From Aetokthonos hydrillicola CCALA 1050 (GTDB lineage: Bacteria > Cyanobacteriota > Cyanobacteriia > Cyanobacteriales > Nostocaceae): DNA of 64,000 nucleotides. Positions 1-51,839 of this stretch are shown here, piece by piece (position 1 is the stretch's first letter; each line of letters starts with the position of its first letter). Below the pieces are notes generated by a model. The model searched no databases. It was not told the DNA's origin and saw nothing but the letters and a program-made list of their open reading frames with translations. The stretch is taken from the NCBI RefSeq assembly GCF_017591665.1, contig NZ_JAAKGC010000030.1, forward strand, positions 19,483 through 83,482, read 5' to 3'. A program made the translations under genes and the position numbers.

Positions 1-249
1 TTCGTCAAAGTAATTTATAGATTAGCAGATGCATGGAAGAGGACCCTTCCATCAGTCATTTTTTATAAACTAAGGAAGAAACCTAGAGATGAATCTACGT
101 TTCCTTGGTAACCTGATTGTATTGCCATAACATCTGTTGAAGAGACAACCAGATTATTGCAGCTGCTGCAACGAATAAGGCAATAGTATCATCGTTCAAT
201 AACTTGATCAGATATTATAAGTCCTGTACGGTTTAGATTTTAAGGGAAT

Positions 250-453
250 TCAGAAATTTTGTAACATGGTCATCGACACACTCCGCCAAATCGCTGAAAC
301 CCTATATTTTTGGTTGGAGTGTGTCGATCGCTTATGGGGTAAGGTTTTGATCTCTATGTCTTGCTTGATTTTTGGGAAGTTGTATAATGTTTTTCAGGAG
401 TGTGTCGATTTGTCGTCTGAAACCCTTACACAGTAAGGGCTCCTAGACGAACT
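250..453 (+). promoter_or_regulatory. CRISPR leader for array 1, AT-rich and ~90% identical to the leader of array 2
   Basis: The ~200 bp immediately 5' of the first repeat is near-identical to the reverse complement of 11391-11590, which lies between cas2 and array 2. It contains repeated gtgtgtcgat motifs. Confidence 0.75.
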
Positions 454-2081
454 CCCTACCGACTGGGTTAAATCGGATTAGTTGGAAACCAGGAACAAGG
501 TTAATGCCCCTATTATTCAAGCCCTACCGACTGGGTTAAATCGGATTAGTTGGAAACAAATTACGCTACCATAGACTTGATGTGCGCTTGATTAACCCTA
601 CCGACTGGGTTAAATCGGATTAGTTGGAAACTAGTGCAATCTGTGGTCAGTCAGTACTGGCCTAAAGCCCTACCGACTGGGTTAAATCGGATTAGTTGGA
701 AACCATAATTCCCCCACGCTCCATTTCCATTGTTCGGAAACCCTACCGACTGGGTTAAATCGGATTAGTTGGAAACGACTGCTAAATCAATCAAGACGAT
801 CCGGCGACCAGGTTTCCCTACCGACTGGGTTAAATCGGATTAGTTGGAAACTCTCATTCACTCTTGTATTGGCTATTCTTGCACTTAACCCTACCGACTG
901 GGTTAAATCGGATTAGTTGGAAACATCATATTCGGTCACTATGAATTTTTGGGGATAATCCCTACCGACTGGGTTAAATCGGATTAGTTGGAAACTTCTA
1001 AGACATCATGGGAGATGTCTTATTTTTTTCTCCCTACCGACTGGGTTAAATCGGATTAGTTGGAAACCTTTATTTCTTCTCAGTTTTGTCGTTTCCATCA
1101 CTCCCCTACCGACTGGGTTAAATCGGATTAGTTGGAAACATTAATACCCAGGTGGCAGCTATTGCCAAAAAAAAGCCCTACCGACTGGGTTAAATCGGAT
1201 TAGTTGGAAACCCCAAGTTTCGCCAAGGAATTGGTATCCCCAGGAACCCTACCGACTGGGTTAAATCGGATTAGTTGGAAACAAAAGTTGAAAATTCAGG
1301 AAAGAAACTTTCCCCTACCCTACCGACTGGGTTAAATCGGATTAGTTGGAAACCTGCATCCTGAACCGCGTTCAGAACTGGGTCACCAGCCCTACCGACT
1401 GGGTTAAATCGGATTAGTTGGAAACTGTATGATGGTCGTTTTTCGACAGGAGAAATTAGCGGACCCTACCGACTGGGTTAAATCGGATTAGTTGGAAACG
1501 GTGCATTCGGATAGTTCCTCTTTGGTGAGGAAACCCTACCGACTGGGTTAAATCGGATTAGTTGGAAACAATTTATCAGAAGAATTTCCCCAAGCGCCAC
1601 CACCCCCCTACCGACTGGGTTAAATCGGATTAGTTGGAAACTTCCACTGCTCAAAAGGTTCCCAGTCGTTTAGTTTGAAAACCCTACCGACTGGGTTAAA
1701 TCGGATTAGTTGGAAACATTCTGCAAATCGCCCACTTTTGCTGTTGGATTCGCAGTCAACCCTACCGACTGGGTTAAATCGGATTAGTTGGAAACGTTGG
1801 GTTGCGTCTTGCGGCCTTACATTCGGCAACTTCCCTACCGACTGGGTTAAATCGGATTAGTTGGAAACGAGGGGGCTGTGGTTTAGGGATAATGAAATAT
1901 CCAAACCCTACCGACTGGGTTAAATCGGATTAGTTGGAAACTTGCGGGTTTGCATTGCAATTTCCTGTGCCATCCCTACCGACTGGGTTAAATCGGATTA
2001 GTTGGAAACTTATCTTCAACATTTGCAACAAAAGCTATCGCAACTCCCTACCGACTGGGTTAAATCGGATTAGTTGGAAAC
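454..2081 (+). CRISPR. CRISPR array 1: 23 copies of a 36-nt repeat CCCTACCGACTGGGTTAAATCGGATTAGTTGGAAAC with 22 unique spacers of ~32-40 nt
   Basis: Perfectly conserved direct repeats with a period of ~70-75 nt and unique spacers, read directly from the sequence. The small ORFs called inside it (LPTGLNRISWK peptides) are repeat artefacts. Confidence 0.97.
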
Positions 2082-2115
2082 CATTTTGGTCATTGTTAAG
2101 AATATCCCTAAATCC

Positions 2116-2538
2116 TTAAAAAGACCAAGGATTAATGATTACAACCCCTGTTGAGGCAAAATCTTTTTCGTTACGCGTGACAAGTGATAGAGAGTTATGA
2201 AGTGCGATGGCTGCAATGAGAGAATCCATTGCGGGTAGAGATCGCCCCGAAAATTCTAGTTGCCCAACTAAGTTTCCCCACAACACCATTGTTGAGAAAT
2301 CAATACTTAAAATTCTGTTTTCAAAGCGTAGCGGTAGTGTTTCATTTAACCAAGTTGTTAGAGATTCTTTGCGGTTAGATGCAGTCATTTTGCTAATACC
2401 TTTAGCGATTTCGCCAATTGTGATGACGCTTAGATAAAGTGTTTCTGGCACTTGGGCATCTAGCCAATCTAAAACTTGTTGATTTGGTTGTTTGGCAATC
2501 AGTTCGGAAATCAAGCAAGTATCAAGGAGGTAGCTCAT
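2116..2538 (-). CDS. vapC: PIN-domain toxin, VapC family
   Basis: 140 aa. The N-terminus MSYLLDTCLISEL carries an acidic residue typical of PIN domains. It overlaps the upstream small gene by 4 nt (ATGA), the usual toxin-antitoxin arrangement. Confidence 0.75.
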   Translation of the reverse strand: MSYLLDTCLISELIAKQPNQQVLDWLDAQVPETLYLSVITIGEIAKGISKMTASNRKESLTTWLNETLPLRFENRILSIDFSTMVLWGNLVGQLEFSGRSLPAMDSLIAAIALHNSLSLVTRNEKDFASTGVVIINPWSF

Positions 2539-2762
2539 GGGGTGAAGCTATCACGGGCTTGACTGAGATCTCGGCTTAGGTCTAATTCTGAACTGACTTC
2601 AGCTAGGGGGGATTGACGGAAAAACTCTGAGAGTTTGGTGGTTTGTTCTGGGTAGGAGTTGTTATTCTGTGTGGTCAGGCTTTGGGCGAGTAGTTGGATA
2701 ATGTACAGCTTATCGTTAGCTGAGAGATTCAGGAGTTGTTGTTCGAGTTCTGGGATAACCAT
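2535..2762 (-). CDS. Small antitoxin-like protein paired with VapC
   Basis: 75 aa, translationally coupled upstream of the PIN gene. Its N-terminal PELEQQLLNLS...IIQLL pattern recurs in a second small orphan ORF at 34006-34176. Confidence 0.55.
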   Translation of the reverse strand: MVIPELEQQLLNLSANDKLYIIQLLAQSLTTQNNNSYPEQTTKLSEFFRQSPLAEVSSELDLSRDLSQARDSFTP

Positions 2763-3151
2763 ACTGGGGGTTAAGTTGAGGATAAATTTATTTTACTTTC
2801 CGCATCAGGGATCATCGTTTAATTTGCCGCCAGGCTAGAGTATCCGCCGAGATAATTGCACTCAGGGTTGTGTTATTGCGAAGCTGTAACGCACCTTGAA
2901 TTTGTGGCGGTGCGCCGCTTGACGACAACACAACAGCAATATTGGGAGAGGAAAATCCACACCCCAATTTGCCTCCCCTAAGTTAATATTTCTTAACATA
3001 GTTTGAAATATTAACGCCGACTTACTTAAGCGATCGCCTCCAGGTGATCGCTGTTTATTTGGGAGAATAGCTGATAGGTAAAAGCGTCTTCCACCCATAG
3101 GTTTTAATAGAAAACAAGAAAACAAAAACCCAAAACGAAGGGTAAAAGAGC

Positions 3152-3724
3152 ATGAGAAATCTTCATCGAGTGATGATTATTGCTGATGGCGATAACGCTT
3201 TTATGGCTGCGCATAATTTTAATCGCAAAATAGATTGGTGTAAGATGCGGGACTATTTAGCTGACCCAAAAGAAGGGAGAGAGTTAATTGAAATGGTGAT
3301 TTATATCGGTTTACCTCCTGCAAAAGAAAGATTTGAGGAACAGCGAAAAAGTAAAGAAAAATTTATTTATTGGGCAAAGAGTAATGGTTTTTTAGTTGTT
3401 GCTAGAGAAGGTAAAGCTAAGGGTGAAGATTATGAAAGCAATGTTGATGTTGTCATGGCAATTGATGCGATTCAGTTAGCTTTAGAAGTAAAACCAGATA
3501 TTGTAGTTTTAGTAACTGGAGATTCTGATTTCGCTTATTTAGCAGAGAAATTGAGAAGACGAGGAATAAGAGTTGAAGTAGCTTCAGTTGAACAATCTTT
3601 AGGGAGTGAGTTGAAAATTGCAGCTAATAGCATAGTGGATTTAAGTGAGGTTTTTGATAAATTTGCGCAACATGATGTCAACGAAAATTATCATCGTATA
3701 GGCAGTTCCACCGTCTTTGATTGA
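3152..3724 (+). CDS. NYN/LabA-like (PIN-fold) ribonuclease domain protein
   Basis: 190 aa. The IIADGDN...VVLVTGDSDF acidic motifs are characteristic of the NYN/LabA (DUF88) family. Confidence 0.65.
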   Translation: MRNLHRVMIIADGDNAFMAAHNFNRKIDWCKMRDYLADPKEGRELIEMVIYIGLPPAKERFEEQRKSKEKFIYWAKSNGFLVVAREGKAKGEDYESNVDVVMAIDAIQLALEVKPDIVVLVTGDSDFAYLAEKLRRRGIRVEVASVEQSLGSELKIAANSIVDLSEVFDKFAQHDVNENYHRIGSSTVFD

Positions 3725-3768
3725 TGAAATCATAGTACTGCAAACAACGAAAAATAAAAGGGTTTTTT

Positions 3769-4173
3769 ATGAAAACAGTCAATGGAAAGTTAATCAATCA
3801 AGAACAAATTCAGTGTGATAAATTGACCCATATGACGGAGGAAATTACCCAACGCTGTGATTATTTAGAATCTGAATATCTACAGAAGATAAATCAAGAA
3901 ATTGATAATACAAAATCTTGTCTTGAAAAGCTAGAGCAAAAAATCTGCTTTTTGGAGGATGTAACATTCAAACAAGCTAAGCAGTTGTCATTTCTTAAAA
4001 TAATGAGTGTTATTGGTCTACTTGGCTTGTTCTTTATATTTGGCATAAACCATCAACCGCAAAATGAAAGTATTAAACCGCATAAAAAGCAGTCAAAATA
4101 CACCACCGATAAAGAGATGGTGTTTCAAGAAAAGTTTCAATTTCTGTCTCGTCCACAGAGGATGAGCTTTTAA
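3769..4173 (+). CDS. Hypothetical coiled-coil protein with a C-terminal transmembrane helix
   Basis: 134 aa with a hydrophobic stretch IMSVIGLLGLFFIFGI. The 3' end overlaps a locally repeated DNA segment (4092-4130 resembles 4450-4486), so the C-terminus is uncertain. Confidence 0.35.
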   Translation: MKTVNGKLINQEQIQCDKLTHMTEEITQRCDYLESEYLQKINQEIDNTKSCLEKLEQKICFLEDVTFKQAKQLSFLKIMSVIGLLGLFFIFGINHQPQNESIKPHKKQSKYTTDKEMVFQEKFQFLSRPQRMSF

Positions 4174-4217
4174 ACAAGTATTTATTCTGACTCCTGATAA
4201 AAAATCGAGGAAATAAA

Positions 4218-4415
4218 ATGAGAGCAATTGTCAATGGTAAATTGGTTGATTTACCACAAGGTACAACAGTCGAAGAATTACGAAAAAAAATGCCAGAAAT
4301 TGGTCAAGATGATGTGATGGAAGAAAGTTTTAGTGGTACTCGTCCTTTGAAGAGTAATGAAGCACTAAAAGAAGGTTCAAAAATTTGGACTATGCCAAAA
4401 ATTGTGAAAGGGTAA
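4218..4415 (+). CDS. Ubiquitin-like beta-grasp protein (ThiS/MoaD-like), candidate Ubl of a Bil/Bub-type system, ending in a single glycine
   Basis: 65 aa. The MRAIVNGKLVDLPQGTTVEEL...LKEGSKIWTMPKIVKG* pattern matches ThiS/MoaD with a C-terminal Gly. There is a GAGGA ribosome-binding site, and the gene lies immediately upstream of the E2-like and JAB-E1 genes. Confidence 0.6.
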   Translation: MRAIVNGKLVDLPQGTTVEELRKKMPEIGQDDVMEESFSGTRPLKSNEALKEGSKIWTMPKIVKG

Positions 4416-4630
4416 TAAAAAGGAGTCAGGAGTCAGAATACAGGAGGCAGAATACACCAACCATAAAGGGATGGCGTTTTAGCACTCCTGAATCAACCCC
4501 TCCGCAGAGTAACGAGTAGACAAGGTAGTTCATTCTGACTCCTGACTCCTGACTCCTGAATTCTTCTTCGATTTTTGTTTATCCAATAATCTAGGTTCAG
4601 TTTCTGAGTGTTGAATGAAGAGGGTGAAGT

Positions 4631-5116
4631 ATGGCAGTTACAATTAGCCAAGAAAAATCGGGATTTAAACCCAGCGCGCGAATTATACAAGAACTCAAAT
4701 TGTTAGAAAAAGTAGCCAAAAATGTAATTGTTGGTAGCAAAACAGTAAGTCAGACAAAATACACGGCTATTCTGATTAAGGGGATGCCATTATCTTCTAG
4801 AAAGTTTAAAGTTTCCAACACAGATGTTTTGTTTTTATTACCACCAAATTATCCTCAGCTTCCTCCTATTGGCTGCTATCTAAATTATCCATGGAGTACT
4901 GTAGGAGAAGGAGACCATCACTTCACTAGACAAAGCTACTATGGAGCACCATTTTTGAGTGAAGAAGGATGGTATTGGTACTGTGTTGGATTAGGTGGAG
5001 GATTTAACCATGAAGTGTGGTTAAATTCTTGGAGACCTAGCCATAATCCAGAAAAAGGTCATAATCTTTCTACTTTGTTTGTGACAGCACGCCACGCAAT
5101 TAATAGTGACGAATAG
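4631..5116 (+). CDS. E2-like (UBC-fold) ubiquitin-conjugating enzyme homologue
   Basis: 161 aa. LLPPNYPQLPPIGC matches the E2 signature FPxxYPxxPP followed by Cys. The gene sits between the Ubl and the JAB-E1 gene. Confidence 0.55.
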   Translation: MAVTISQEKSGFKPSARIIQELKLLEKVAKNVIVGSKTVSQTKYTAILIKGMPLSSRKFKVSNTDVLFLLPPNYPQLPPIGCYLNYPWSTVGEGDHHFTRQSYYGAPFLSEEGWYWYCVGLGGGFNHEVWLNSWRPSHNPEKGHNLSTLFVTARHAINSDE

Positions 5117-5130
5117 GAAATTTAAAAATC

Positions 5131-6573
5131 ATGAATAAACCTTCTACAATTTCTGTGCATGTGGCACCAAAAATGTGGTCTGAGTTTCGAGAATCTATGG
5201 TTCAGTCTCGGATGTTTAATGAGGAAGTTATTGGTTTTTTATTTTGTCAGCGTCATCAAGTTTCTAAAAGGAAATTCCGATATATTCCTAAAACTTGGGT
5301 CGTTCCTGCTTCTGATTGCTATGAACATCAATCAGCTAGTGGGTTAGTTTTAAAACAGCATTTTCATTCTTATCTGTTAGAAAATCATCTTCAACCTGGT
5401 ATGGATGTAGTTCACATCCACACCCATACAAGTCCAAATTTTCCAGACTTTTCGTATGTTGACGACCGTTATGAATCTGAATATGCAAGATTTATTGCGT
5501 CTCATTTTCCTAAAAAACCTCGTTTGATTTCCGGGGTGTTTGACGAAAATCTAAAATATGGTCAATTTCGGATTTGGGATAGGAAAGGGCAGAAATTTGA
5601 AAATGTTCAATTCTACAATTCGTTATTTATGGTCTCTAACCCTGAAGAGAACATGAAAAATACAAATTTTATGTTTGCTCGCCAAAAAATATTTGGTGAA
5701 GCCAATCAAAACGTTTTGAATCAGCTAAAAGTTGGACTTATTGGGTGTGGTGGAATTGGTTCAATTTTTGCAGAATTATTAGGACGTTTGGGTGTGAAAA
5801 ATTGGGTATTAATTGATCCAGATCAATTGGAGACAGTTAATCTCAATCGAATGCCTGGTGCTACACAAGAAATGGTAGACCAACAATGGTATAAAGTACA
5901 TTATGTCAAGCATCTAATCAAAAAAATTTACCATCAGGGTTCTTGTGTCAAAACAATATCAACTACAGTTGAAAGCGAATCAGCCAAGCAAGAAATCGCA
6001 AGCTGTGATTTAGTAGTGGTAGCGACTGACAATCATCTTTCTCGTAAAACTGCTCAAGAATTAGCCTTGCAGTATATGCGTCCTTTGGTGTGTTTAGGAA
6101 CTCATATAGATCTGAAATCAGATCATACACCGCGCATGTATTGCAGAATTACCGTTCCTCCTTTGGGAGGTGGTTGGTGTTTGATGTGCGGTAATATTAT
6201 CAACCTGCAACGTGCAGCCTTAGAGTCTGCACCTTTAGAGATTAACAAGATGGCTGCAAGTGCTGGTTATTTAGAAGGAGTGAATGACCCAGCCGTATTT
6301 TGGTTAAATAGTATTTGTGCAAGTACAGGTGTTGGTGTCATTCATGGGATGATCAGCGGTTTTTTAAATGTTGATTCTGGGATTGATTGGATTTATGAGT
6401 TTCCCGTTAGTGATTGGCGTAAGACGAATATAGAGTATTTGCACAATGACGATTGTTACTTTTGCGGGCTTAATAATTCCGAGGAAGTCGAAACCTCCGA
6501 AAATTCAGATTTTATAAAGAAGAATTCAGGAGTCAGGAGTCAGGAGTCAGAATACATCCGCTACCTAGAATAA
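5131..6573 (+). CDS. JAB/JAMM deubiquitinase fused to an E1-like (ThiF/MoeB-type) activating enzyme
   Basis: 480 aa. The N-terminal HIHTHTSPNFPDFSYVDD is a JAMM-like HxH...S..D metal site. The central LIGCGGIGS...DPDQLETVNLNRM is the ThiF/E1 Rossmann and adenylation motif. Two CxxC pairs follow (CLMCGN, CYFCGL). The last ~15 aa are encoded by STRR heptamers. Confidence 0.85.
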   Translation: MNKPSTISVHVAPKMWSEFRESMVQSRMFNEEVIGFLFCQRHQVSKRKFRYIPKTWVVPASDCYEHQSASGLVLKQHFHSYLLENHLQPGMDVVHIHTHTSPNFPDFSYVDDRYESEYARFIASHFPKKPRLISGVFDENLKYGQFRIWDRKGQKFENVQFYNSLFMVSNPEENMKNTNFMFARQKIFGEANQNVLNQLKVGLIGCGGIGSIFAELLGRLGVKNWVLIDPDQLETVNLNRMPGATQEMVDQQWYKVHYVKHLIKKIYHQGSCVKTISTTVESESAKQEIASCDLVVVATDNHLSRKTAQELALQYMRPLVCLGTHIDLKSDHTPRMYCRITVPPLGGGWCLMCGNIINLQRAALESAPLEINKMAASAGYLEGVNDPAVFWLNSICASTGVGVIHGMISGFLNVDSGIDWIYEFPVSDWRKTNIEYLHNDDCYFCGLNNSEEVETSENSDFIKKNSGVRSQESEYIRYLE

Positions 6574-6820
6574 ATAGCAACTACTACTCTTTTAAGTTAA
6601 ACGTAGGTTGGGTTGAGGAACGTAGACGCCCCTAGCGGCTTCCCGCAGGGTAACCCAACATTTTTAGGATTTTGTTGGGTTTCGCTGTCGCTCTACCCAA
6701 CCTACAATTATCCTTAACCGAACCGTATTGCATTCGCCCCTACATATCGTACCTGTATCATGCTTTTCTTGAAAGTGATAACTGATAACTGTTCACTATT
6801 AAAATATCCAGGGAGATGTT

Positions 6821-7852
6821 ATGAAATTTAGAAATGCTAAAGGCAATCTGGCTGTTATTTTTCTCATGACTTTATTTTGCTTAAGTGTTTTTAGTTATGG
6901 AGTATACGCAAGCTATTACGGATTGCTATTATTTCAGCAAGGAGCTTTTAATTTTATTATCGGTCTGTTCTTTTTGGTTTGTATTGGTATCCCTAGTATT
7001 TACTGGGTGCTCACAACCATGTACAGATATTTTGCTGCTGTACCTTCTTATGTTAATCAAAGAAAAATACGAGTTATTAACCCTCTTTTAGTACACGAGA
7101 AAGGATTATATTCTGAAACTGAAAAATGGTTATGTACGAGGGTTAAAGAGTTAGCTCAAGCAGAAGGATTACCCAAAACTCCAGTAGTAGGAATTGAATT
7201 ATGTGATGACAATCCTAATGCTTATGCAGTGGGTGCAACTCGTTCTTATGCGATGGTTGTTGCTACTACTGGTTTAATCAAACAATTAAGTCACAGAGAA
7301 GTTGCTGCGGTGATGGCGCATGAATTAGGACATATTGCGAATCTAGATACGATGGCAAAAACTCTTCTTTCCGCTGCTTTGGATGGTGTGATGCTAATAC
7401 TTTTTACGCCAATGTTGCTGATTGTTTGGTATTTTGGGAGATTTGTGGCTTTATTAATGCTGGCTGCAGGTGTAATTTATGGTCTGATGGGTAATTGGCA
7501 GCACGCAACAGGCTTTTTTGTGGGTGTATTGGTTTGGATTCTTTTAATGATGTTGCCGATGATAACAAAGTTCTTGGTTACATTATTGACTTTTTGGCAC
7601 AGTCGTTGGCGCGAATATCACGCTGATGCGGTTGCAGCTAGGTTAACGAGCGTTGATGATATGGTATCAGCCTTGGTAAGGCTTGACCGTTTACCTTTCG
7701 AACCACCGAAAAAAAATAAAGAACAAATGGCTACTTTATGGATTCGAGTGGCGATGACTCAAGAAACAGGTGTGTTTCACTGGTTAAAGCATACACACCC
7801 ACCTATTCACAAAAGAATTGAAGCTTTAAGACGTGGATTTTATTTGAGATGA
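6821..7852 (+). CDS. M48 family zinc metalloprotease (HtpX-like), integral membrane
   Basis: 343 aa with the HELGH zinc motif (VMAHELGHIANLD) and several hydrophobic helices. Confidence 0.85.
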   Translation: MKFRNAKGNLAVIFLMTLFCLSVFSYGVYASYYGLLLFQQGAFNFIIGLFFLVCIGIPSIYWVLTTMYRYFAAVPSYVNQRKIRVINPLLVHEKGLYSETEKWLCTRVKELAQAEGLPKTPVVGIELCDDNPNAYAVGATRSYAMVVATTGLIKQLSHREVAAVMAHELGHIANLDTMAKTLLSAALDGVMLILFTPMLLIVWYFGRFVALLMLAAGVIYGLMGNWQHATGFFVGVLVWILLMMLPMITKFLVTLLTFWHSRWREYHADAVAARLTSVDDMVSALVRLDRLPFEPPKKNKEQMATLWIRVAMTQETGVFHWLKHTHPPIHKRIEALRRGFYLR

Positions 7853-7923
7853 TTGCTTGTGGAAATGGCATTTCTCTCAATTGTAATAGTAAACCCTGTT
7901 CAAAAATATACTAAAACTAAAGT

Positions 7924-8913
7924 ATGTACAGCTATCATATTGAGTTAAACGGTGAAGTGTTGCACGTTGGATTTAATCGTAATCTTCCGTCTCAGGGCGA
8001 TCGCATAGTCCGAGATGCGCTAGAAGTCGTAAGCCAAAAAATTGATTCTGGGGAAATTACAGGAGGTAAACGTATTTTAATTGACGGACCACAATCTGTT
8101 CCTGTTGCTTACGTGCTTTCTCACAAACTTGCGCATTTATACCAAGTCGTCGCAATTTTAGATCCCAAACTTGGTAGTAAAGTAAGTACACCAAATGGTG
8201 CTATTAGACACAAAACTTATATCGTCACCTCTGTACATGGTTCCGCAGAATATCAAGTCGGTGATTTGATCGAAACAACTGAATCTCAGAAAGAGCGATC
8301 GCTGATCAAAGTTGTTTTGTGCGGTCCTGCAAAGTCAGGAAAATCCTGTTTGCGAGATGGTTTAAAAAGAGCTATTTTAGGCAGATTAGGTGCACCTTAT
8401 CCTTATGTCATCACCGCTTGTCCAGATGGGGAAGGCTCTTGGCATCAAGAAGCTTATGAAAACAATCAGTCAGCAGCGAAGGATTATAAGTATAATAATA
8501 AAGCAGATTTTACACCTGAGTTTGCACAACAAGCTGCTAAATGGGTACAGGGTGCAAACCAGTTAATCAATATTATTGATGTTGGTGGTAAAACTTCTCC
8601 AGAAAATAAAATAATAATGAAAGAAGCAACCCACGCTGTCATTTTGTCAGGAGATGTAAACAAATTTCCTGAATGGGAAGTTTTCTGCCAAGAATTAAAT
8701 CTTAAAATCGTTGCCAAGATTCACAGCCAATTACATGGCGTTCAAGATGAGGTTATGCAAGCTGATAATTGGCAAGAACAAACGAACGAATTGTTAGAAA
8801 CCGCCCCATTACTAACAGGTAGCGTACATCGATTAGAACGTGGAGAAAATGTATCAGATCGTCCAATGGTCAAAGCATTGGCTGATGTGTTGAAACATTT
8901 AACAAAGTGTTAA
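7924..8913 (+). CDS. Hypothetical P-loop (GPAKSGKS) protein with an internal tandem duplication; speculatively a Csx3-like CRISPR accessory protein
   Basis: 329 aa. LIDGPQSVPVAYVLSHKLAHL (first half) parallels VLCGPAKSGKSCLRDGLKRAI (second half, Walker-A-like). It lies adjacent to the array 2 trailer. Confidence 0.4.
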   Translation: MYSYHIELNGEVLHVGFNRNLPSQGDRIVRDALEVVSQKIDSGEITGGKRILIDGPQSVPVAYVLSHKLAHLYQVVAILDPKLGSKVSTPNGAIRHKTYIVTSVHGSAEYQVGDLIETTESQKERSLIKVVLCGPAKSGKSCLRDGLKRAILGRLGAPYPYVITACPDGEGSWHQEAYENNQSAAKDYKYNNKADFTPEFAQQAAKWVQGANQLINIIDVGGKTSPENKIIMKEATHAVILSGDVNKFPEWEVFCQELNLKIVAKIHSQLHGVQDEVMQADNWQEQTNELLETAPLLTGSVHRLERGENVSDRPMVKALADVLKHLTKC

Positions 8914-9094
8914 GTGTTTCAAATCATCTGATTTAACTCTAATTAAAGAGGGTTGAGAAACATAGCGTTACTCAACCTTTGTTTATGCTTTTTAATTGAG
9001 TAAGTACTCATTCATTTTGAGTGAAAAAAATTTCACCACCACGCATGAAAGAGGAATATTCCCTACTCAGAGTTGCCCGAAAGATCCGCCCCAT

Positions 9095-9275
9095 CTGACA
9101 TCTTGCACCCCGGCTGAATCAGCCCGATATCCTGCCCTACACTTAAGTGTAGGGCTAATAGCTTAAGTCCATTGAAATGGACTGAAATCCTTGCTCAGTC
9201 CTCTTGAGAGGACTTTAGCTATCAACAAGCGATTTAAATCGCTGGCTGGCTGACAGCCCAGGTGCAAGATATCAG
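9095..9275 (+). mobile_element. 181-bp MITE copy A with 15-bp terminal inverted repeats CTGAYATCTTGCACC
   Basis: It matches 12127-12307 over its whole length with identical TIRs. Its internal perfect palindrome (GCCCTACACTTAAGTGTAGGGC) differs between copies by compensatory changes. It overlaps the 3' end of the 9272-9904 gene. Confidence 0.8.
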
Positions 9276-9904
9276 CCATGCCCTCTTGACGTTTCTCCCT
9301 GCAAAATCCCAATAATCGTCCGGGTTACAAACTCTAAATCCTGCGGCACTGGATGCAGAGGCAAATACTGTACCACATGATGTGCAGCGCGATCATACAG
9401 ACCAAATCGCCAAATTTCCCCGGTTGAAACTGCACCGTACAAAATAGGACTCTCACTTTCTACCCAGCGATCCAGCGCAATTAATTCAACGGCAAGCTGA
9501 GTAAAGCCTTTGGTCAAGTCCGATTGTTTTGCTTCAATAATCAGAAGATTACTCGGGCTGGGAATATAGTAGTCTAGGGAGCCTTTTAACCAATTGCTCA
9601 CACTAACCGTATACTCAATATTGATTGAATAGTCTAACAGATCGCAAATCCGATCAAGCAACGGAAAAATCAATGCCTCCCGACGAGCCTGTTCAGTGGT
9701 TGTATTCACCCGTTTGAGTCTGCGCCGCATACTGAGTGCAAGTTCAGGCAGCCAATCTAATTCAGACTGCGTGTAAGGGAGATCTTCGCGATCGCTGCGC
9801 TCGATCGTACAGCCCAAATCTGCCAAAATATCTTCCGGTGAGTAAGGCAATTCAAAATACTTGCTAAAGGTGTAGGACTCGTTTGGATCTAAAACCTTGG
9901 GCAT
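9272..9904 (-). CDS. PD-(D/E)xK nuclease-fold protein (probable start at MPKVLDPNES)
   Basis: DYYIPSPSNLLIIEAKQSD matches the D...(D/E)xK core. A GAGGAG ribosome-binding site lies 10 nt upstream of the ATG at 9904. The longer ORF reaching 10075 would overlap the neighbouring gene. The last codons fall inside the MITE TIR. Confidence 0.55.
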   Translation of the reverse strand: MPKVLDPNESYTFSKYFELPYSPEDILADLGCTIERSDREDLPYTQSELDWLPELALSMRRRLKRVNTTTEQARREALIFPLLDRICDLLDYSINIEYTVSVSNWLKGSLDYYIPSPSNLLIIEAKQSDLTKGFTQLAVELIALDRWVESESPILYGAVSTGEIWRFGLYDRAAHHVVQYLPLHPVPQDLEFVTRTIIGILQGETSRGHG

Positions 9905-10058
9905 GGTGTCGATCTCCTCACTGAAACAGTATACCCATTCTATCGAAGCTCCTAACTTTTCACAGTAATTAAAGCAGGAAGCCCATGAAGACAAGGTTAT
10001 TCTAGATTTAGAACAACCTTGTCTGTTATGCGCGACATGGGAGGAAGGCGACGCGACT

Positions 10059-10259
10059 TTAGTCGCCGTCAACACTCTTTTCGACTAATAATATTAGTTG
10101 ACGCCCCCATCTCTCCATTAATTCACTAGCGCTAATACCTTGTTGTTTTGCGGTTTCGGTAATCCCTTTCCATGCAGTATCAGTTAATCTGGTGGCACGA
10201 GGTTTTTTGATTTCGTCATAAAGAACTGGTATATTTCGTGTTCTTTTTACTCCTTTCAT
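10059..10259 (-). CDS. Small ribbon-helix-helix (CopG/Arc-like) DNA-binding protein
   Basis: 66 aa. KKPRATRLTDTAWKGITETAKQQGISASELMERW fits a beta-strand plus two helices RHH pattern. It is abutted by a 27-bp inverted repeat. Confidence 0.4.
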   Translation of the reverse strand: MKGVKRTRNIPVLYDEIKKPRATRLTDTAWKGITETAKQQGISASELMERWGRQLILLVEKSVDGD

Positions 10260-10261
10260 AT

Positions 10262-10459
10262 GGTTCTTGCGTACTTAGCGTGCTAAATATGTTGAAAAAT
10301 AAGCTTGAAATCCTTGCTGGGATAAGATGACAGCCATTATTTACTGCCTTTTAGGTCTGATGATTAAAATTTTGGCTATAAGCGCCTGTAAGCCTTGATT
10401 TTAAAACAAAGTTATCGACTGTAATTAAAAATTTAGCACGTTAAGTACGCAAGAACCGG
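10262..10459. repeat. Near-perfect 27-bp inverted repeat (GGTTCTTGCGTACTTAGCGTGCTAAAT) whose arms lie ~145 bp apart, between the RHH gene and the array 2 trailer
   Basis: Arms at 10262-10288 and 10433-10459 with one mismatch. Either a MITE-like element or a large operator or hairpin. Confidence 0.6.
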
Positions 10460-10497
10460 GGGAAATAATTTTTTCTCTAACATGTCGCAGTTCGCTG

Positions 10498-11390
10498 GTT
10501 TCCAACTAATCCGATTTAACCCAATCGGTAGGGCTAAATTACCTGAATTCAATCGTATGGGTGTGCTCGTTTCCAACTAATCCGATTTAACCCAATCGGT
10601 AGGGCATGCATGTGAAGGAGAACGCAAATGCTCTTATTACTGTTTCCAACTAATCCGATTTAACCCAATCGGTAGGGCAACTGAACCATTAGCTCGTGCT
10701 AATGTCAGTAAAGGTTGTTTCCAACTAATCCGATTTAACCCAATCGGTAGGGTGGTGGTTCTAACTGGCCTCATCCTGATCTTTACAGGTTTCCAACTAA
10801 TCCGATTTAACCCAATCGGTAGGGGGCACTTCAAGAATGACCCAACGCAGATTTCTAGCGTTTCCAACTAATCCGATTTAACCCAATCGGTAGGGTTCTA
10901 TCCGGGATAACTGGCGGGACTTACCTCCTTTAGTTTCCAACTAATCCGATTTAACCCAATCGGTAGGGATAAAAAAGCACGAACAGAAGAAAAAATCAGG
11001 TTTCCAACTAATCCGATTTAACCCAATCGGTAGGGTTGGTTTTTTGCATAACAGTGCAATTGCAGACCAGAGTTTCCAACTAATCCGATTTAACCCAATC
11101 GGTAGGGCGCTTTCAAAAAGTGTTGTCCACGCGATTTTATGTTTCCAACTAATCCGATTTAACCCAATCGGTAGGGTCAATGGGTGAAAAATCCCAGCGG
11201 TGCGGTTGTTGTTTCCAACTAATCCGATTTAACCCAATCGGTAGGGGTAAGACGACTGTCTTTCTCTAATCCAGAAAGATTATGGTTTCCAACTAATCCG
11301 ATTTAACCCAATCGGTAGGGACCCGACTATTATTCCCATGGAACTTTCAGGGAAGTTTCCAACTAATCCGATTTAACCCAATCGGTAGGG
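10498..11390 (-). CRISPR. CRISPR array 2: 13 copies of the repeat GTTTCCAACTAATCCGATTTAACCCAATCGGTAGGG (one A/G difference from array 1) with 12 spacers; leader and cas2 on the high-coordinate side
   Basis: Direct repeats with unique spacers read from the sequence. Orientation is set by the adjacent leader and cas2. Confidence 0.97.
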
Positions 11391-11608
11391 AGTTCGTCCA
11401 GGAGCCCTTACACAGCAAGGGTTTCAGACGACAAATCGACACCATCCTGAAAAACATTATAAACGTTGTGGAAAATCGAGCAACAGACAAGCCTCAAAAC
11501 CTTACCCTGTAAGCAATCGACACACTCCAACGGAAAATATAGGGTTTCAGCGATTTGGCGGAGTGTGTCGATGACCATGTTACAAAATCTCCTTAATATC
11601 TCTAAAAT
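11391..11608 (-). promoter_or_regulatory. CRISPR leader of array 2
   Basis: It lies between the cas2 stop and the first repeat and is near-identical to the array 1 leader in reverse complement. Confidence 0.75.
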
Positions 11609-11884
11609 CTAGATCACGTAATACTTTGGCGGTGTCGTTGGTTCTTCACTACCAATAGTTAAGACCCTAGAAACAGCTTCTTGTGAAACCCAGTAAAAGC
11701 GGACATTATCCTCAGATGGTTTCACCAATTTCTTCGATTTTTCAAAAAGTTGCCGCATTTCCTCCAAGCTTAAAAAACATTCAAACACAGAAAACTGCAC
11801 CCTTCGGCCGTAACCCTCTAGAAAATTGGATAACTTCGTACGTCTCTTATCATCAGGAATATCATACACAACGACCACTAACAT
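11609..11884 (-). CDS. cas2: CRISPR-associated endoribonuclease Cas2
   Basis: 91 aa. MLVVVVYDIPDDKRRTKLSNFLEGYGRRVQFSVFEC is the canonical Cas2 N-terminus. It is directly leader-proximal. Confidence 0.92.
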   Translation of the reverse strand: MLVVVVYDIPDDKRRTKLSNFLEGYGRRVQFSVFECFLSLEEMRQLFEKSKKLVKPSEDNVRFYWVSQEAVSRVLTIGSEEPTTPPKYYVI

Positions 11885-12126
11885 GTTTATTAGTAAGAAT
11901 TAATACTTCATAAAAGTATAGATTTTTTTACTTTTTAATACAAATTAAGTAATTATACAAAATCTGATTCATTGAAAAATGAAGTTTTCAAAGGGTTTCA
12001 GATAGAAACAAAGTCTCTTCTCCTAAGATGCACATTTTAGAATGCCTGTATAGCAAGGGTTTTAGAACTCCCGAAAAATGTGCTTCTTTCATATGTTGCT
12101 AGCACCATTTTGGCGCTAGTTGGAGG

Positions 12127-12307
12127 CTGACATCTTGCACCATTCTCAATCAGCCCGATATCCCGCCCAGAACTGAAGTTCTGGGCTAATAGCGCGCATT
12201 CCATTGAAATGGACTGAGGTTCTTGAGCAGTCCTCTTGAGAGGACTTTAGCTATCAGACAGCGATTTAAATCGCTGGCTGGCTGACAACCTAGGTGCAAG
12301 ATATCAG
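12127..12307 (+). mobile_element. 181-bp MITE copy B, same family and same orientation as copy A
   Basis: Same TIRs (CTGACATCTTGCACC ... GGTGCAAGATATCAG). The internal palindrome GCCCAGAACTGAAGTTCTGGGC differs from copy A by compensatory changes. It lies in the intergenic region between cas2 and RT-cas1. Confidence 0.8.
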
Positions 12308-12329
12308 TCTTCCCCCTTAAGGTGATTTC

Positions 12330-12445
12330 CGAGAAAGAAAATACCTGGGGAGTGCGAGTTTCGGCTTCGCTCAACTCAAGGTTTCGACTTCGCTCAACTC
12401 ACGATCTCTCAGTTGGTTGAGCGAAGTCGAAACCAACGGCGACGG
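12330..12445. repeat. Small hairpin repeat element (GTTTCGACTTCGCTCAAC ... GTTGAGCGAAGTCGAAAC); a second copy is inverted at 47276-47365
   Basis: The two loci share ~90 bp with an internal inverted repeat. Confidence 0.7.
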
Positions 12446-12467
12446 TATATTTATTCCTGTAAATCAC

Positions 12468-14642
12468 CTAAGCTGCTCTTAAAAAAGATTCATAGGGAGT
12501 CCCTGATAATAAATAGCGTTTATACCGCCTTACCTGTAATTGAATTACATGTCTATATGTAGCTGCAGAAATTAAATCTGGGTGAGAAACTTCTTCATTC
12601 ATCCGGCTTTCAAATTGTTTAAGAAACACTTTCCGTGCAGACTGGCTTAAATATACACCTCCCGTACTCGCAACTAGATCAAAATCATTTGGTTTAAATT
12701 CATTATTATTAATCACCTTCAAAACCAAACTATCAACAATAGGAGAGCGAAACTCTTCCATCAAATCAAAAGCTAAATATGGCTTGCACTTTTCACCATA
12801 ATGAAAATTACCTATATACGGTGAAATACCTTCAGCAATAATAAAACTCAACACGTTGTTGAACAAAAGCGTATAACCAAAACTCAACAACGAATTCACT
12901 TCATCAATAGGGGGTTGACGAAATCGCTGGGAAAAACTGAAAGCCGAATTGGTAATTAACTTACCAAAAGCCGGAAAATATCTCGCAGCAGCAATACCTT
13001 CATAACCGCGCAATGTATCTAAATTGTCTACATATTCCACAGCGTTAATATCTTGATTAATACCATAAATAGCCTTTTCCAAATCTTCTATTTTGCGTCT
13101 ACGATTAAATCGCATTAACAACTGCTTAGAATTCATTAACTTACCTAAAACAATCGCTTTAGATACGTTATATTGAAAATAATCATCATTGCGTCTCTCT
13201 ATTTGTATTAGATGTGTTTCAAAATTAATAGATTCTTCACTCCACAGATGACCGTGGTATTGTCCAGATTGGCTCAGAAATAATACAGGAATTTGCTCTT
13301 CCAAACAGGCATTAATTACAGGAGTCGATAATTGAATATTACCAAACACTATAATTTGTTGTACTTCTCGAATCGGTACTTCTAGTTTAGGCTTTTCTGA
13401 AACATGAATAATAAAACGTTGATAATCCTTATAGATTGAAGTTCCTTGTTCAATAAGGTAAATAGCTGCCATTTCTTGACTCCAAATATTTTTTTGAAAA
13501 AGGCTGTTTTCATTATCTTGTTGCTCATTAGTAGATGATTCTATCTCTACCTCTGCTAGATAGGGTTGATGTAAATAAGCAATATTACTAGAAACTACCC
13601 CCCCAACCTCATTCTGATTCTCTTGTAATAAAGACTGACTTTCTAATTCTCTTTGCTCATAACCTTGAGGTTCTTCCTGTTTTTTTTTAGTTTGTTTTTT
13701 TACTTGCTTTTCCTCTATCCCCGACTTTAACTTAACTGTGTTTGCATCAACCGGAAAAATCGCATTTTCTATAAAACCATGACCTAAAAACCGAAAACCA
13801 CGGTTAAAATTAGTAATTTGAGTTTTTTCCGTATTTATCGTCAAACCCATTGAATCCAACAAATTGACAATTTCTAATTGAGCTAATAAAATTCTTTCTT
13901 GACTGTGGGATAAAACCACAAAATCGTCCGCATAACGCACAAGTTTTAAATCTGTTGCGCTAACTAACTCATCAAATTCATGTAGATAAATATTCGCAAG
14001 TAAGGGAGAAACTACCGCACCTTGAGGGATCCCTTTTTGTGGCAATATCAATCCTTCTAATGTTAACATTCCGACAGATATCCAAGATTTAATTAAACAT
14101 AAAATTCCCGAATTATCTATATGTAATCTTACTTCTTTTAATAACCTGAAATGGTCAATATTATCGAAAAATTTTGCAATATCCGCATCAAAGACCCATA
14201 CATAACCCATATCTCGCCAATCAGCAATTTTCTCCACAGCATTGATATAAGATAAATTAGGGCGATAGGCAAAACTAACAGGCAAAAATTTTTCTTCAAA
14301 TACTGGATTTAGTACATTTAATAACGCCTGCTGGACAATTCTATCTCGAACTGTTGGTATTTTTAACTCCCTTTGCTTACCATTTTTTTTGGGAATAACC
14401 ACCTGTTTATATGGCTGAGGTTCATAAGTGCTATTAGCAACAGCACGAAGTAATTGATAAATATTCACAGTTTGATTAGAAGCAAAGCTATCAATTGTTT
14501 CTCCATCTATCCCCGCACCACCCCTGTTTCCAGCAACCTTTTCCCAAGCACGTTGAAAGTTATTTATATCCAGGAATTGGCTAATAATATCTGTCATAAA
14601 ATCTCCCACAGTAAAATGAAAATTTGTAACCTTTTTGAACAA
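12468..14642 (-). CDS. cas1: Reverse transcriptase-Cas1 fusion (RT-Cas1), the type III-associated adaptation enzyme
   Basis: 724 aa. The N-terminal half has group-II-intron-like RT motifs (AGIDGETIDSF, FDADIAKFFDNIDH, IPQGAVVSPLLANIYL, YADDFVVL). The C-terminal half is Cas1-like (IREVQQIIVFGNIQLSTPVINACLEEQIPVLFL ...). The exact start is uncertain (M at 14642 or internal MTDII). Confidence 0.9.
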   Translation of the reverse strand: MFKKVTNFHFTVGDFMTDIISQFLDINNFQRAWEKVAGNRGGAGIDGETIDSFASNQTVNIYQLLRAVANSTYEPQPYKQVVIPKKNGKQRELKIPTVRDRIVQQALLNVLNPVFEEKFLPVSFAYRPNLSYINAVEKIADWRDMGYVWVFDADIAKFFDNIDHFRLLKEVRLHIDNSGILCLIKSWISVGMLTLEGLILPQKGIPQGAVVSPLLANIYLHEFDELVSATDLKLVRYADDFVVLSHSQERILLAQLEIVNLLDSMGLTINTEKTQITNFNRGFRFLGHGFIENAIFPVDANTVKLKSGIEEKQVKKQTKKKQEEPQGYEQRELESQSLLQENQNEVGGVVSSNIAYLHQPYLAEVEIESSTNEQQDNENSLFQKNIWSQEMAAIYLIEQGTSIYKDYQRFIIHVSEKPKLEVPIREVQQIIVFGNIQLSTPVINACLEEQIPVLFLSQSGQYHGHLWSEESINFETHLIQIERRNDDYFQYNVSKAIVLGKLMNSKQLLMRFNRRRKIEDLEKAIYGINQDINAVEYVDNLDTLRGYEGIAAARYFPAFGKLITNSAFSFSQRFRQPPIDEVNSLLSFGYTLLFNNVLSFIIAEGISPYIGNFHYGEKCKPYLAFDLMEEFRSPIVDSLVLKVINNNEFKPNDFDLVASTGGVYLSQSARKVFLKQFESRMNEEVSHPDLISAATYRHVIQLQVRRYKRYLLSGTPYESFLRAA

Positions 14643-14699
14643 CGTAATCAGAAAGAGTTTTCTAGAAAATTCCTATTTGATATTTCAAATTTAAAACCT

Positions 14700-15032
14700 T
14701 GTCTATGAGTCGATAAGACAGACAATAGGTAGGTTGGGTTGAGGGACGAAACCCAACATTTTTAGATTTTTGTTGGGTTTCACTTCGTACCCCTACGGGG
14801 AAGCAAGCTACAACCCAACCCAATACTGCTCGGTTAAGCCGAAAATTTAAATTTAATCTAGGTTGGGTTGAGGAACGAAACCCAACATTTATAAGGATTT
14901 GTTGGGTAACGCTTATGCGCTCTACCCAACCTACGATTTTCCAAAACCCCGTGCAGTATTGCAGCCCAACCTACTACTGTATGGTTTTATGAGTCGTTTA
15001 TTCTGACTCCTGACTCCTGACTTCTGACTCCT
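14700..15032. repeat. Cluster of dispersed palindromic 'gttgggtt/aacccaac' repeats plus STRR heptamers (CTGACTC)n
   Basis: Several copies of aggttgggttgagg..aacccaacat units. Related copies occur at 6600-6700, 33770-33850, 50100-50450, 54890-54990 and 56640-56790. Confidence 0.8.
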
Positions 15033-15035
15033 TTT

Positions 15036-16517
15036 TTATCTATAAAGCTGATAAGTAGCTTCCATATCTTCTTTCATACGCTGTCGTAAACTCCAAGGTA
15101 AAATTACTTCAACATTTTGTCCCCAAGCTCTGAGACGCATAACGATATTATTATCGTCTTGGCGATAATAAATTTTGCGGTAAACACTGTTTTTATTGGA
15201 ATTCAATTTTGAAAATAAATATTGTTGTTCTGGGAATGAAGAAGTGTTATTTTTTATTAAAAATTCAACTTGCTTTTGAGAAATTTTTGTAAACATTTCA
15301 TCTCGTTCAGTTCCTTGGATATTATTAGCGTAAAAATACTGATTAAATCTTAAAACAAGTAATTCCGGTGGCTTGTGGATATCAAATCCCCAAGCTGATA
15401 ACATTTCATCTTTAATATCTTGAGGACTCGGGGGATATTTACCCCAACATTTAGTTATAAAGCTTTTAGGAATATTGCTATTGCTTAAATCTGTTGGCAA
15501 TTCATCTAATTTAAGAATGCGATCAAGTCGATAATCGTACCAGTTAATTTCATTCCAACTATGTTCACTATCTCTTTGTGGTGTTTGACCGTAAGCAAAT
15601 AAATAAAAGCCACGTTGGTAGTAGTAAATACAAACGGGATAAACAATACAAGTAACTGTATCTTGATATAGTTTTGCACTCTTGTATGTTAATTTTATGA
15701 ATGAAGTTTTATCTTTTGACCAAATTTGTTTCAATTGCTTTTGTAATAATTTTACATGAATGTATAGTTGTGGATGTACTATATATTCTGTATGTATAAA
15801 GAACCTTTGAATCCCATTAATTGGCTTAGATAAGGAGTTATTGAGTGCAGATAATTCTTCATGTGTAAATTGCTTACTCGTAGCTCCTAGATTTTCAACA
15901 CAATCCCAGAAAATTTGTGGTATTTTTTTTACTTTTACATACTTATCTTGATTATCTACTTTTTTTATATTTAACCAGCCAAGATTAACTAATGTCCGAA
16001 AATCATAGTCTTTTAAATTACGACAAGTTACAGCAAATAACCTTCCATCAGGTATGGTTTTAGAAAAGCCGTGATATTTTTGACTATTCTGATTATCAGA
16101 TGAGTCTTGATCTGTGTTGTTAATGCTTCCAGTCAATAGTAAATTTTCTAACTCATCAGATTCAATAGAATAATACTTATGAAATGACTGACACCATTTA
16201 TTTTTTTCAATGCTTAGATTTGATGTAAATAACCACTCACTTAATTTTCTCGCACATCGGCATTCTTCATGGTGTAAAGTAGGAACATTATCGCGTGCAT
16301 GATGCTTTGTCGCATCCTGAAAGAATAAATCTCTCCATTGCAGAAAACTAAATTCTTCTTCTAACTCCAATGTTGCTTCATTATTATCACCTCCGTATAT
16401 AGAATGTAAAATTACCCACAGCCTTATCGCTTTTACTAAGTTTTGTTTCAGAGAACCAGGTACAAGTAGCTTTAAAACTTCTACACTAGGAGGATATTTA
16501 AAAATGTCTCTCGTCAT
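15036..16517 (-). CDS. WYL-domain protein, a putative CRISPR-associated regulator or accessory protein
   Basis: 493 aa. QRGFYLFAYGQ...WYDYRLDRILKL matches the WYL-domain core (xWYLvAY ... FRLDRI). It lies immediately upstream of RT-cas1 on the same strand. Confidence 0.55.
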   Translation of the reverse strand: MTRDIFKYPPSVEVLKLLVPGSLKQNLVKAIRLWVILHSIYGGDNNEATLELEEEFSFLQWRDLFFQDATKHHARDNVPTLHHEECRCARKLSEWLFTSNLSIEKNKWCQSFHKYYSIESDELENLLLTGSINNTDQDSSDNQNSQKYHGFSKTIPDGRLFAVTCRNLKDYDFRTLVNLGWLNIKKVDNQDKYVKVKKIPQIFWDCVENLGATSKQFTHEELSALNNSLSKPINGIQRFFIHTEYIVHPQLYIHVKLLQKQLKQIWSKDKTSFIKLTYKSAKLYQDTVTCIVYPVCIYYYQRGFYLFAYGQTPQRDSEHSWNEINWYDYRLDRILKLDELPTDLSNSNIPKSFITKCWGKYPPSPQDIKDEMLSAWGFDIHKPPELLVLRFNQYFYANNIQGTERDEMFTKISQKQVEFLIKNNTSSFPEQQYLFSKLNSNKNSVYRKIYYRQDDNNIVMRLRAWGQNVEVILPWSLRQRMKEDMEATYQLYR

Positions 16518-16831
16518 GGTGTGTTTTGCTGCTTATCGTTGGATGCTTCTAGATTAACAGCAGATGGAAGAGGCATCTTCCCATTAAAAAATCAACTTCG
16601 ATTTATGAATATTCAATCCTTGAACATGCCAATTGCTGCGATCTGCGCTCCGCGCAGCAGCGAAGCTATACCAGAACAAGCTTTATCTGAGGAAACTCCC
16701 CTGATCATCCCACAGAAAACCTCTGAGTCCAAAATCTTCGTTAATCTTAGCCGAGATAGTCACTTAAACCCCTATGCTAACGATTGGGTTTAACTATAGC
16801 TGCTTATTGTCAATCATTAAAAAGCGGTTAG

Positions 16832-18136
<1,305 letters not shown>

Positions 18137-47188: not shown

Positions 47189-47471
47189 TTGTTATACAAT
47201 AACACAAATTGCTAATTTATCATTCACGCACTAAGTGAGGCTGATCATCTTGGGTGATTTACACCGAATAAATATACCGCAGCCGTTGGTTTCGACTTCG
47301 CTCAACCAACTGAGAGATCGAGAGTTGAGCGAAGTCGAAACTCGCACTCCCCAGGTATTTTCTTTCTAGGAAATCACCTTGGTTCGTAGTTGCGCTTTAG
47401 CGCACTCAAGTCCAGCTACAAACCTTTCAAGTTATTTACATAACTTTACGTATTATTTCCTATTCACATCT

Positions 47472-51425: not shown

Positions 51426-51839
51426 TTAAGGATATTGTTTTTGATTGATTAATGCTTGCCGTTGAAGCACACGATTAGGAACATTAAACTGAAGCAGTCT
51501 TGCAGTCCCTTGACCGATCTGAGTTTTCCCTTCTATTCTCGCGCCCTCAAAATAAAAATGTTCATCCCAAGCCAGACGACGCGGGTTAAACAATGGGACA
51601 ATCTCTTTAGTAAATCGGTCTATAGTCGCGAAATCCGAACCTTTATGACGGTTGCAAGACAAACATGAAAGTGCCAAGTTTTCAGCAATTGTTTCACCCC
51701 CATGCTTTACAGCAATAATATGGTCAACTTCATGAGTATAAATTGAAAAATCTTGATGAATTAAGCAATATTCACAGCGTCCAGCGGCTCTCTCAATGAC
51801 TAGCTTACGTACTTCGGTATCAATTGAATTAGAAGTCAT
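51426..51839 (-). CDS. HNH endonuclease
   Basis: 137 aa. CEYC...HEVDHIIAVKHGGETIAENLALSCLSCNRHK is an HNH motif with a zinc-binding CxxC pair. Confidence 0.85.
   Translation of the reverse strand: MTSNSIDTEVRKLVIERAAGRCEYCLIHQDFSIYTHEVDHIIAVKHGGETIAENLALSCLSCNRHKGSDFATIDRFTKEIVPLFNPRRLAWDEHFYFEGARIEGKTQIGQGTARLLQFNVPNRVLQRQALINQKQYP

Follow-up and report, generated by a model that had tools for sequence, protein, structure and literature searches.

An RT-Cas1, Cas2, and WYL gene set as one end of a probable cas6-less type III-B CRISPR locus in Aetokthonos hydrillicola

We analyzed a 64-kb stretch of the genome of the cyanobacterium Aetokthonos hydrillicola CCALA 1050 (hereafter the window, to whose coordinates positions refer), in which an initial annotation, made from the sequence alone, had described a stand-alone CRISPR adaptation module at 11609-16517, comprising a fusion of reverse transcriptase (RT) and Cas1, a Cas2, and a WYL-domain protein. 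Our reading, to which we assign a probability of roughly 85%, is that these three genes form one end of a contiguous ~24-kb cyanobacterial type III-B locus that bears RT-Cas1 and lacks cas6. Each component has been described before (RT-Cas1/Cas2 in cyanobacterial type III-B systems, WYL genes beside CRISPR, and cas6-less III-B loci), and a literature search found no CRISPR analysis of Aetokthonos.

Effector genes, arrays, and locus layout

A contig of A. hydrillicola Thurmond2011 is 100% identical to window positions 1-11543 and reaches 2,076 nt further left, and in this extension, 49 nt before the window's first position, is the start codon of a cmr2/cas10 gene that is divergent from CRISPR array 1. 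Its 564-aa product has an intact Cas10 GGDD cyclase motif, and the gene is followed by cmr3, cmr4, cmr5, cmr6, and a CARF-RelE gene, with PADLOC E-values of 4e-185 for Cas10b, 4e-17 for Cmr3, 7e-27 for Cmr4, 2e-65 for Cmr5, 2e-221 for Cmr6, and 1e-150 for CARF-RelE. The operon is ~0.5 kb from array 1 and ~11.6 kb from cas2. These genes confirm the type III affiliation given in the initial annotation, and they contradict its "stand-alone" label, as do the array and leader that the module itself possesses 3' of cas2. Domain scans, which covered window open reading frames (ORFs) of at least 120 aa, detected no Cas10, Csm/Cmr, or Cas6 domain; the earlier statement that cas10, csm/cmr, and cas6 are missing from 64 kb is hence right inside the window and wrong as biology, since cmr2 starts just outside. 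Likewise, interference genes thought to be "elsewhere or absent" were found by a search for effector genes to be contiguous with array 1. The orphan appearance of the module is thus a window-edge artifact, because the window begins 49 nt after the cmr2 start codon. Separately, a second Cmr2, 80% identical, is encoded elsewhere in the genome (locus L127, JAALHA020000004.1 200946-222592), solo among housekeeping genes and with no other cmr gene, and may be a remnant.

The principal features of the locus inside the window are as follows.

1-453, plus strand: array 1 leader and divergent intergenic region towards cmr2
454-2081, plus strand: CRISPR array 1, 23 identical repeats (T10C relative to array 2) and 22 unique spacers of 32-42 nt
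10498-11390, minus strand: CRISPR array 2, 13 identical 36-nt repeats (CCCTACCGATTGGGTTAAATCGGATTAGTTGGAAAC) and 12 unique spacers of 31-39 nt
11391-11608, minus strand: array 2 leader, 218 nt, directly downstream of cas2, by leader alignment
11609-11884, minus strand: cas2 (91 aa), Pfam CRISPR_Cas2 PF09827 at 1.4e-23 and NCBIfam cas2 at 5e-20
11885-12467, no strand: expanded RT-cas1/cas2 intergenic region with elements a and b, an AT-rich stretch, and a conserved 46 nt 5' of cas2
12468-14597, minus strand: RT-Cas1 fusion (ATG start; TTG at 14642 in the longest ORF), Pfam RVT_1 and Cas_Cas1, PDB 7kft
14598-15035, no strand: spacer of 438 bp between the WYL gene and RT-cas1, where an HD_4 gene sits in many relatives
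15036-16517, minus strand: TIGR03985-family protein (493 aa) of helix-turn-helix (HTH)-WYL-WCX type, a predicted ligand-sensing transcription regulator, by profiles and fold

Starting beyond the window with leftward transcription, the locus order is CARF-RelE, cmr6, cmr5, cmr4, cmr3, and cmr2, then the leader and array 1, a VapBC-like pair, NYN, CorA-like, ThiS-like, E2, E1, and M48 genes, Csx3-AAA, a PD-DExK gene, array 2 with its leader, cas2, RT-cas1, and the TIGR03985 WYL gene. The two arrays and the Csx3-AAA and PD-DExK genes had gone unmentioned in the initial annotation of 11609-16517. The leaders of the two arrays are ~85% identical over ~200 nt and have a TATAAT box in common, which in array 2 stands ~55 nt before the first repeat. 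All 34 spacers (31-42 nt) are unique, and a search with concatenated spacers found no target in the window itself or in related loci. Repeats are uniform within each array, the terminal repeat included; the T10C change, present in 23/23 repeats of array 1 and 0/13 of array 2, would break one pair of the predicted stem. An Rfam search of window positions 1-17000 matched zero families.

The same repeat occurs in at least 117 stretches from Nostoc, Scytonema, Brasilonema, Calothrix, Coleofasciculus, Symploca, Microcoleus, and others, and we used these as a comparative set in which neighboring genes were sought by tblastn. Beside the repeat in 117 loci, Cas2 was found in 34, RT-Cas1 in 23, WYL in 18, Cmr6 in 15, and Cmr2 in 14, together with NYN in 20, E1 in 17, E2 in 12, and Csx3-AAA in 11. 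The order WYL, RT-cas1, cas2, and array is colinear in five Nostocales loci (L009, L018, L042, L043, and L052).

The adaptation genes and the WYL protein

All three ORFs of the original module are intact on the minus strand at their annotated positions, and profile and fold searches bore out their assignment as RT-Cas1, Cas2, and WYL proteins. RT-Cas1 probably starts at ATG 14597, yielding 709 aa; an exact-protein look-up found this very product in the database and no record for the 724-aa version that begins at TTG 14642 in the longest ORF. Within this single ORF, Pfam places RVT_1 at residues 83-289 (E=2e-36) and Cas_Cas1 at residues 394-678 (E=1e-87), and the RT part scores 297.8 bits against the model for group II intron RT/maturase. 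The RT begins near the N-terminus, which therefore leaves no room for a Cas6 domain. The best PDB match, spanning both the RT and Cas1 halves, is the Thiomicrospira Cas6-RT-Cas1 7kft (E=2.9e-64). An alignment of 32 family members (48-83% identity) showed that the RT residues D139 and D224/D225 (YADD) are invariant, as are the Cas1 residues E533, H599, D611, and E614, so that the Cas1 catalytic residues, on which the initial annotation had staked its call, are present and conserved throughout. H599 aligns with Thiomicrospira H873, a mutationally tested active-site His (PMC8102632). Among the 120 best homologs, all 120 combine RVT_1 and Cas_Cas1 only, and every named one is cyanobacterial.

Between RT-cas1 and cas2 lies a gap of 583 bp that holds two dispersed repeat elements, in agreement with the earlier description of a miniature inverted-repeat transposable element (MITE) and a hairpin repeat inserted in ~580 bp. 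MITE-like element a (12127-12315) has terminal inverted repeats whose termini pair, and a second copy lies at 9095-9283; element b (12319-12467) forms a perfect 19-bp hairpin and recurs at 47254-47380. Both fold far more stably than their shuffled counterparts (z=-9.2 for a and -5.6 for b). No U-tract follows either element, and no terminator-like site was found in the gap. The 46 nt directly upstream of cas2 are conserved. Among relatives the gap is 0 bp in seven loci and 650-851 bp in six, and because of these six we take gap expansions to recur and to be tolerated. The inserted elements would probably add structured RNA, with transcription not terminated.

Evidence for the WYL call comes from several directions. 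Pfam WYL scores 20.2 bits, which is below its cut-off of 21.8, and Pfam WCX is weak, whereas NCBIfam TIGR03985 reaches 227 bits against a cut-off of 60, and the CRISPR-linked PADLOC profiles WYL and HTH-WYL match at 1e-132 and 1.5e-107. Its homologs number 552, and many full-length ones at ~40% identity pass both Pfam WYL and WCX. A sequence search against PDB chains gave nothing useful; an AlphaFold (AF2) model built from 37 sequences (mean predicted local distance difference test, pLDDT, 83.4) yielded, in Foldseek, a top 30 of significant PDB matches that are all HTH-WYL-WCX proteins (DriD, PafBC, BrxR, and CapW) with probability 1.0, a predicted likeness that agrees with the profiles. Taken together, TIGR03985, PADLOC, the relatives, and the fold uphold the assignment. 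As a side observation, H73, H82, C86, and C88 in the N-terminal region are invariant across 37 family members and look like a possible metal-binding site, which, to our knowledge, is not a feature of DriD, BrxR, or CapW.

In other genomes, a conserved unit consists of the WYL gene followed by an HD_4 (SpoT-type HD) gene, divergent from a Csx3-family gene, an arrangement seen in distant relatives. HD_4 follows WYL in loci L128, L130, L131, L132, and L133, in Synechocystis pSYSA, and in 11 same-repeat loci (e.g., L018:2387-2968), where it stands between WYL and RT-cas1. A recurrent 253-aa ORF at this position in relatives had been suspected of being Cas6, and this candidate was rejected when it proved to be the HD_4 protein. 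In two loci (L128 and L130) the WYL/HD_4 unit neighbors type III effector genes, and no RT-Cas1 occurs in the 10 kb around it; in two others (L131 and L132) it directly heads SAVED-cmr2-cmr6, and in pSYSA sll7078 and its HD gene are a pair in the CRISPR3 cas region. Since the unit also accompanies type III effector genes that have no RT-Cas1 within this distance, the WYL protein is best read as a type III locus-level regulator. The proposed link between WYL and CRISPR therefore stands for type III loci generally, usually together with HD_4, and not for a specific partnership with RT-Cas1. The HD_4 gene, which follows the WYL gene in pSYSA and many cyanobacteria, has been cleanly lost here.

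CRISPR RNA maturation, mechanism, and competing readings

The initial annotation had proposed looking for effector genes and a cas6 elsewhere; the former were found as the cmr operon, and no cas6 was found in window ORFs of the size scanned, in the 10 kb beyond cmr2, or among the recurrent neighbors listed in 117 related loci. The repeat has a predicted 5' stem-loop with a 6-bp stem (positions 6-11 and 18-23), after which exactly 13 nt remain, AUUAGUUGGAAAC. Microcystis DR4, a related repeat, has been assigned to cas6-less III-B cassettes, with its stem kept by compensatory change (PMC4428289). In Synechocystis CRISPR3, RNase E makes a 13-14 nt handle (PMC12464536), and the CRISPR3 repeat, as read from pSYSA, is also 36 nt long and has a 13-nt tail/handle identical to ours at 11/13 positions. 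By this analogy, the tail and the predicted stem-loop would support RNase E-type processing. Because the Cmr proteins are remote, it is the architecture of the repeat and the lack of cas6, not close homology, that carry the analogy.

A mechanism for the locus can be proposed from these parts and their characterized relatives. Acting together as an integrase, RT-Cas1 and Cas2 would add spacers to either array at its leader-proximal repeat, drawing on DNA and, via reverse transcription, on RNA. Host RNase E, with no Cas6, would cut the precursor CRISPR RNA just 3' of the stem-loop and leave the 13-nt handle. The Cmr complex would bind target RNA, upon which Cas10 would make cyclic oligoadenylate; this signal would activate the CARF-RelE effector and would be degraded by the Csx3-family protein. 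The WYL protein would control transcription of the locus as a ligand-gated factor.

Several results weigh against this picture of an active, cas6-less III-B locus. First, 0/34 spacers matched in a search of a phage collection with concatenated spacers, and the spacers of array 1 are the same in the second assembly covering this array, which therefore gives no sign of recent acquisition. Second, a cas6 may lie elsewhere in the genome, beyond the stretch searched, and the repeat stem, which appears in the centroid fold, has a minimum free energy no better than shuffles. Third, Cmr2 is without ~215 N-terminal aa of its Synechocystis counterpart, to which it is 23% identical, and Cmr6 has no pSYSA-6803 match at 1e-10. 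Finally, RT-Cas1 has a Gln at the position of Thiomicrospira R835, a residue important for single-stranded RNA ligation (PMC8102632), and tblastn with the HD_4 protein of relatives found no trace of that gene in the window.

The most novel of the other readings, which we consider unlikely, is that this compact, HD-less and cas6-less Cmr lineage is a distinct cyanobacterial III-B variant in which a TIGR03985 WYL sensor that normally accompanies HD_4 and Csx3 would gate RT-Cas1 adaptation, RT-Cas1 would work without Cas6, and cyclic oligoadenylate signaling would be wired to the inter-array cassette of ThiS-like/E2/E1 and NYN/CorA-like/M48 genes. If it were true, this cassette, with its ubiquitin-like conjugation genes (ThiS-like/E2/E1), would be an uncharacterized type III effector arm.

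Decay of the adaptation module is, in our view, quite unlikely. Insertions would then have uncoupled cas2 from RT-cas1, HD_4 would be a further loss, and the arrays would be static relics, as might be suggested by a gap of 583 bp with very stable hairpins where seven relatives have none, by the absent HD_4 gene, by spacers with no protospacers in the phage collection, and by array 1 spacers unchanged in the second assembly. Yet the three ORFs are full length and retain every catalytic residue, neither array shows any variation among its own repeats, and the leaders keep their ~85% identity over ~200 nt. The gap itself argues the same way, as six relatives tolerate 650-851 bp, no terminator-like site interrupts it, and the 46 nt 5' of cas2 are conserved.

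Last, an autonomous RT-Cas1/Cas2/WYL adaptation module that has no linked interference genes and acts in trans or only records spacers is very improbable: the 64-kb window indeed has no effector domain, about half of RT-cas loci are reported to be without effector genes and the module to be capable of action in trans (Silas et al. 2017, PMC5513706), and the genome encodes a distant Cmr2 paralog of 80% identity, but cmr2-cmr6 and CARF-RelE begin 49 nt outside the window on the identical contig, these effectors flank array 1, whose repeat and leader match the array next to cas2, and the distant paralog stands alone, away from any other cmr gene. Given how frequent effector-less RT-cas loci are (PMC5513706), an orphan module would not be new.

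The contiguous, cas6-less III-B locus thus remains our preferred reading, and as a locus it is complete, with two arrays under a common leader, Cmr genes, a CARF-RelE effector, and a Csx3-family gene. The main value of this analysis is corrective, in that the module owed its orphan status to the window cut. Beyond this, the locus offers a natural test case for whether RT-Cas1 can acquire spacers in a Cas6-free system, and for the role of the recurrent WYL/HD_4/Csx3 set and the ThiS-like/E2/E1 cassette in type III immunity. That set and the ubiquitin-like cassette are the most interesting loose ends, and both fall outside what the initial annotation had put forward.

Accessory genes and comparison with known systems

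The genes between the arrays comprise the following.

3152-7852, plus strand: accessory cassette of NYN RNase, CorA-like, ThiS-like, Prok-E2_E, ThiF/E1, and M48 peptidase genes, by profiles
7924-8913, plus strand: Csx3-AAA (329 aa), type III accessory protein from the Csx3 family of ring nucleases, PADLOC 1.6e-111
9272-10075, minus strand: PD-DExK protein, PADLOC CRISPR-associated PD_DExK 4.5e-22 (210 aa from a later start in another annotation)
10059-10259, minus strand: 66-aa ORF overlapping the PD-DExK gene, at the distal end of array 2

Within the cassette, the CorA-like protein has 134 aa and a hydrophobic, transmembrane-like C-terminal stretch, the ThiS-like ORF has 65 aa, ends in Gly, and matches weakly (E=7e-4), the ThiF/E1 protein has 480 aa, and the peptidase is M48/HtpX-like. 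A JAB domain at the E1 N-terminus, suspected from a JAMM-like motif, was not supported by Pfam. In many cyanobacterial genera the cassette is again found next to same-repeat arrays, cas2, or cmr2. NYN, ThiS, and Prok-E2 stand in the abbreviation list of Fig. 6D, for putative CRISPR auxiliary genes, in Altae-Tran et al. 2023 (PMC10910872), and we found no description of a mechanism for them. Csx3-AAA was missed by Pfam and NCBIfam, and a PDB-chain sequence search gave nothing useful for it. The PD-DExK gene and the 66-aa ORF are not conserved in related loci.

Other genes were noted in passing. VapBC-like PIN toxin pairs bracket the effector side of the locus, one at the distal end of array 1 (2116-2762, minus strand) and one just past CARF-RelE (L125:18412-19100). 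Further right, a TnpB/Cas12f-like protein (37203-38816, plus strand) with a Cas12f1-like TNB domain (3e-19) and a weak OrfB_IS605 match is probably part of an IS605-family element. The 47-63 kb part of the window looks rich in defense genes, with two Uma2-family endonuclease genes and an HNH gene (47472-48158, 52319-52897, and 51426-51839, respectively) and a 1925-aa nSTAND1 NTPase with many WD40 repeats (56859-62636, minus strand).

Compared with known systems, the WYL protein has the predicted three-part fold of the HTH-WYL-WCX defense regulators DriD, PafBC, BrxR, and CapW and of Synechocystis sll7009, and sits at the edge of a defense locus, with the difference that its N-terminal region of ~230 aa is far larger than a plain winged HTH. 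Of these relatives, sll7009 represses a CRISPR system (PMC4012209).

The locus resembles CRISPR3 of Synechocystis sp. PCC 6803 (III-Bv, on pSYSA), a cas6-less Cmr locus with a 36-nt repeat that has a 5' stem-loop, predicted for the repeat here (PMC12464536), and whose cas region also contains a TIGR03985 gene (sll7078, 32% identical to the WYL protein here). The two differ in that Synechocystis has a plain Cas1 with no RT, retains the HD partner of its TIGR03985 gene, which is lost here, and encodes an N-terminally extended Cmr2 of 979 aa where the one here has 564 aa. Assignment to subtype III-Bv proper was rejected, as the similarity of the Cmr proteins to those of Synechocystis is only remote.

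For the RT and Cas1 parts, the best solved homologs are the Cas6-RT-Cas1/Cas2 integrases of Thiomicrospira and Marinomonas (7kft; PMC8102632), which have the YADD/FADD motif and the Cas1 active-site His in common with RT-Cas1 here. Unlike them, our protein is without an N-terminal Cas6 domain, in a locus without cas6, and its linker is long and of low complexity.

Another close counterpart is the cyanobacteria-specific branch 5 of Silas et al. 2017 (PMC5513706), into which RT-Cas1 here fits, judging from taxonomy and domain architecture. Arthrospira platensis, whose III-B-RT locus is an example of this branch, has an extra, separate Cas1, and none was seen here. Branch 5 spacers are without traceable protospacers (PMC5513706), and ours had none in the phage collection searched. 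Like that branch, our locus combines an RT-Cas1 free of any Cas6 domain, a type found in cyanobacteria only, with type III-B genes and CRISPR arrays (PMC5513706).

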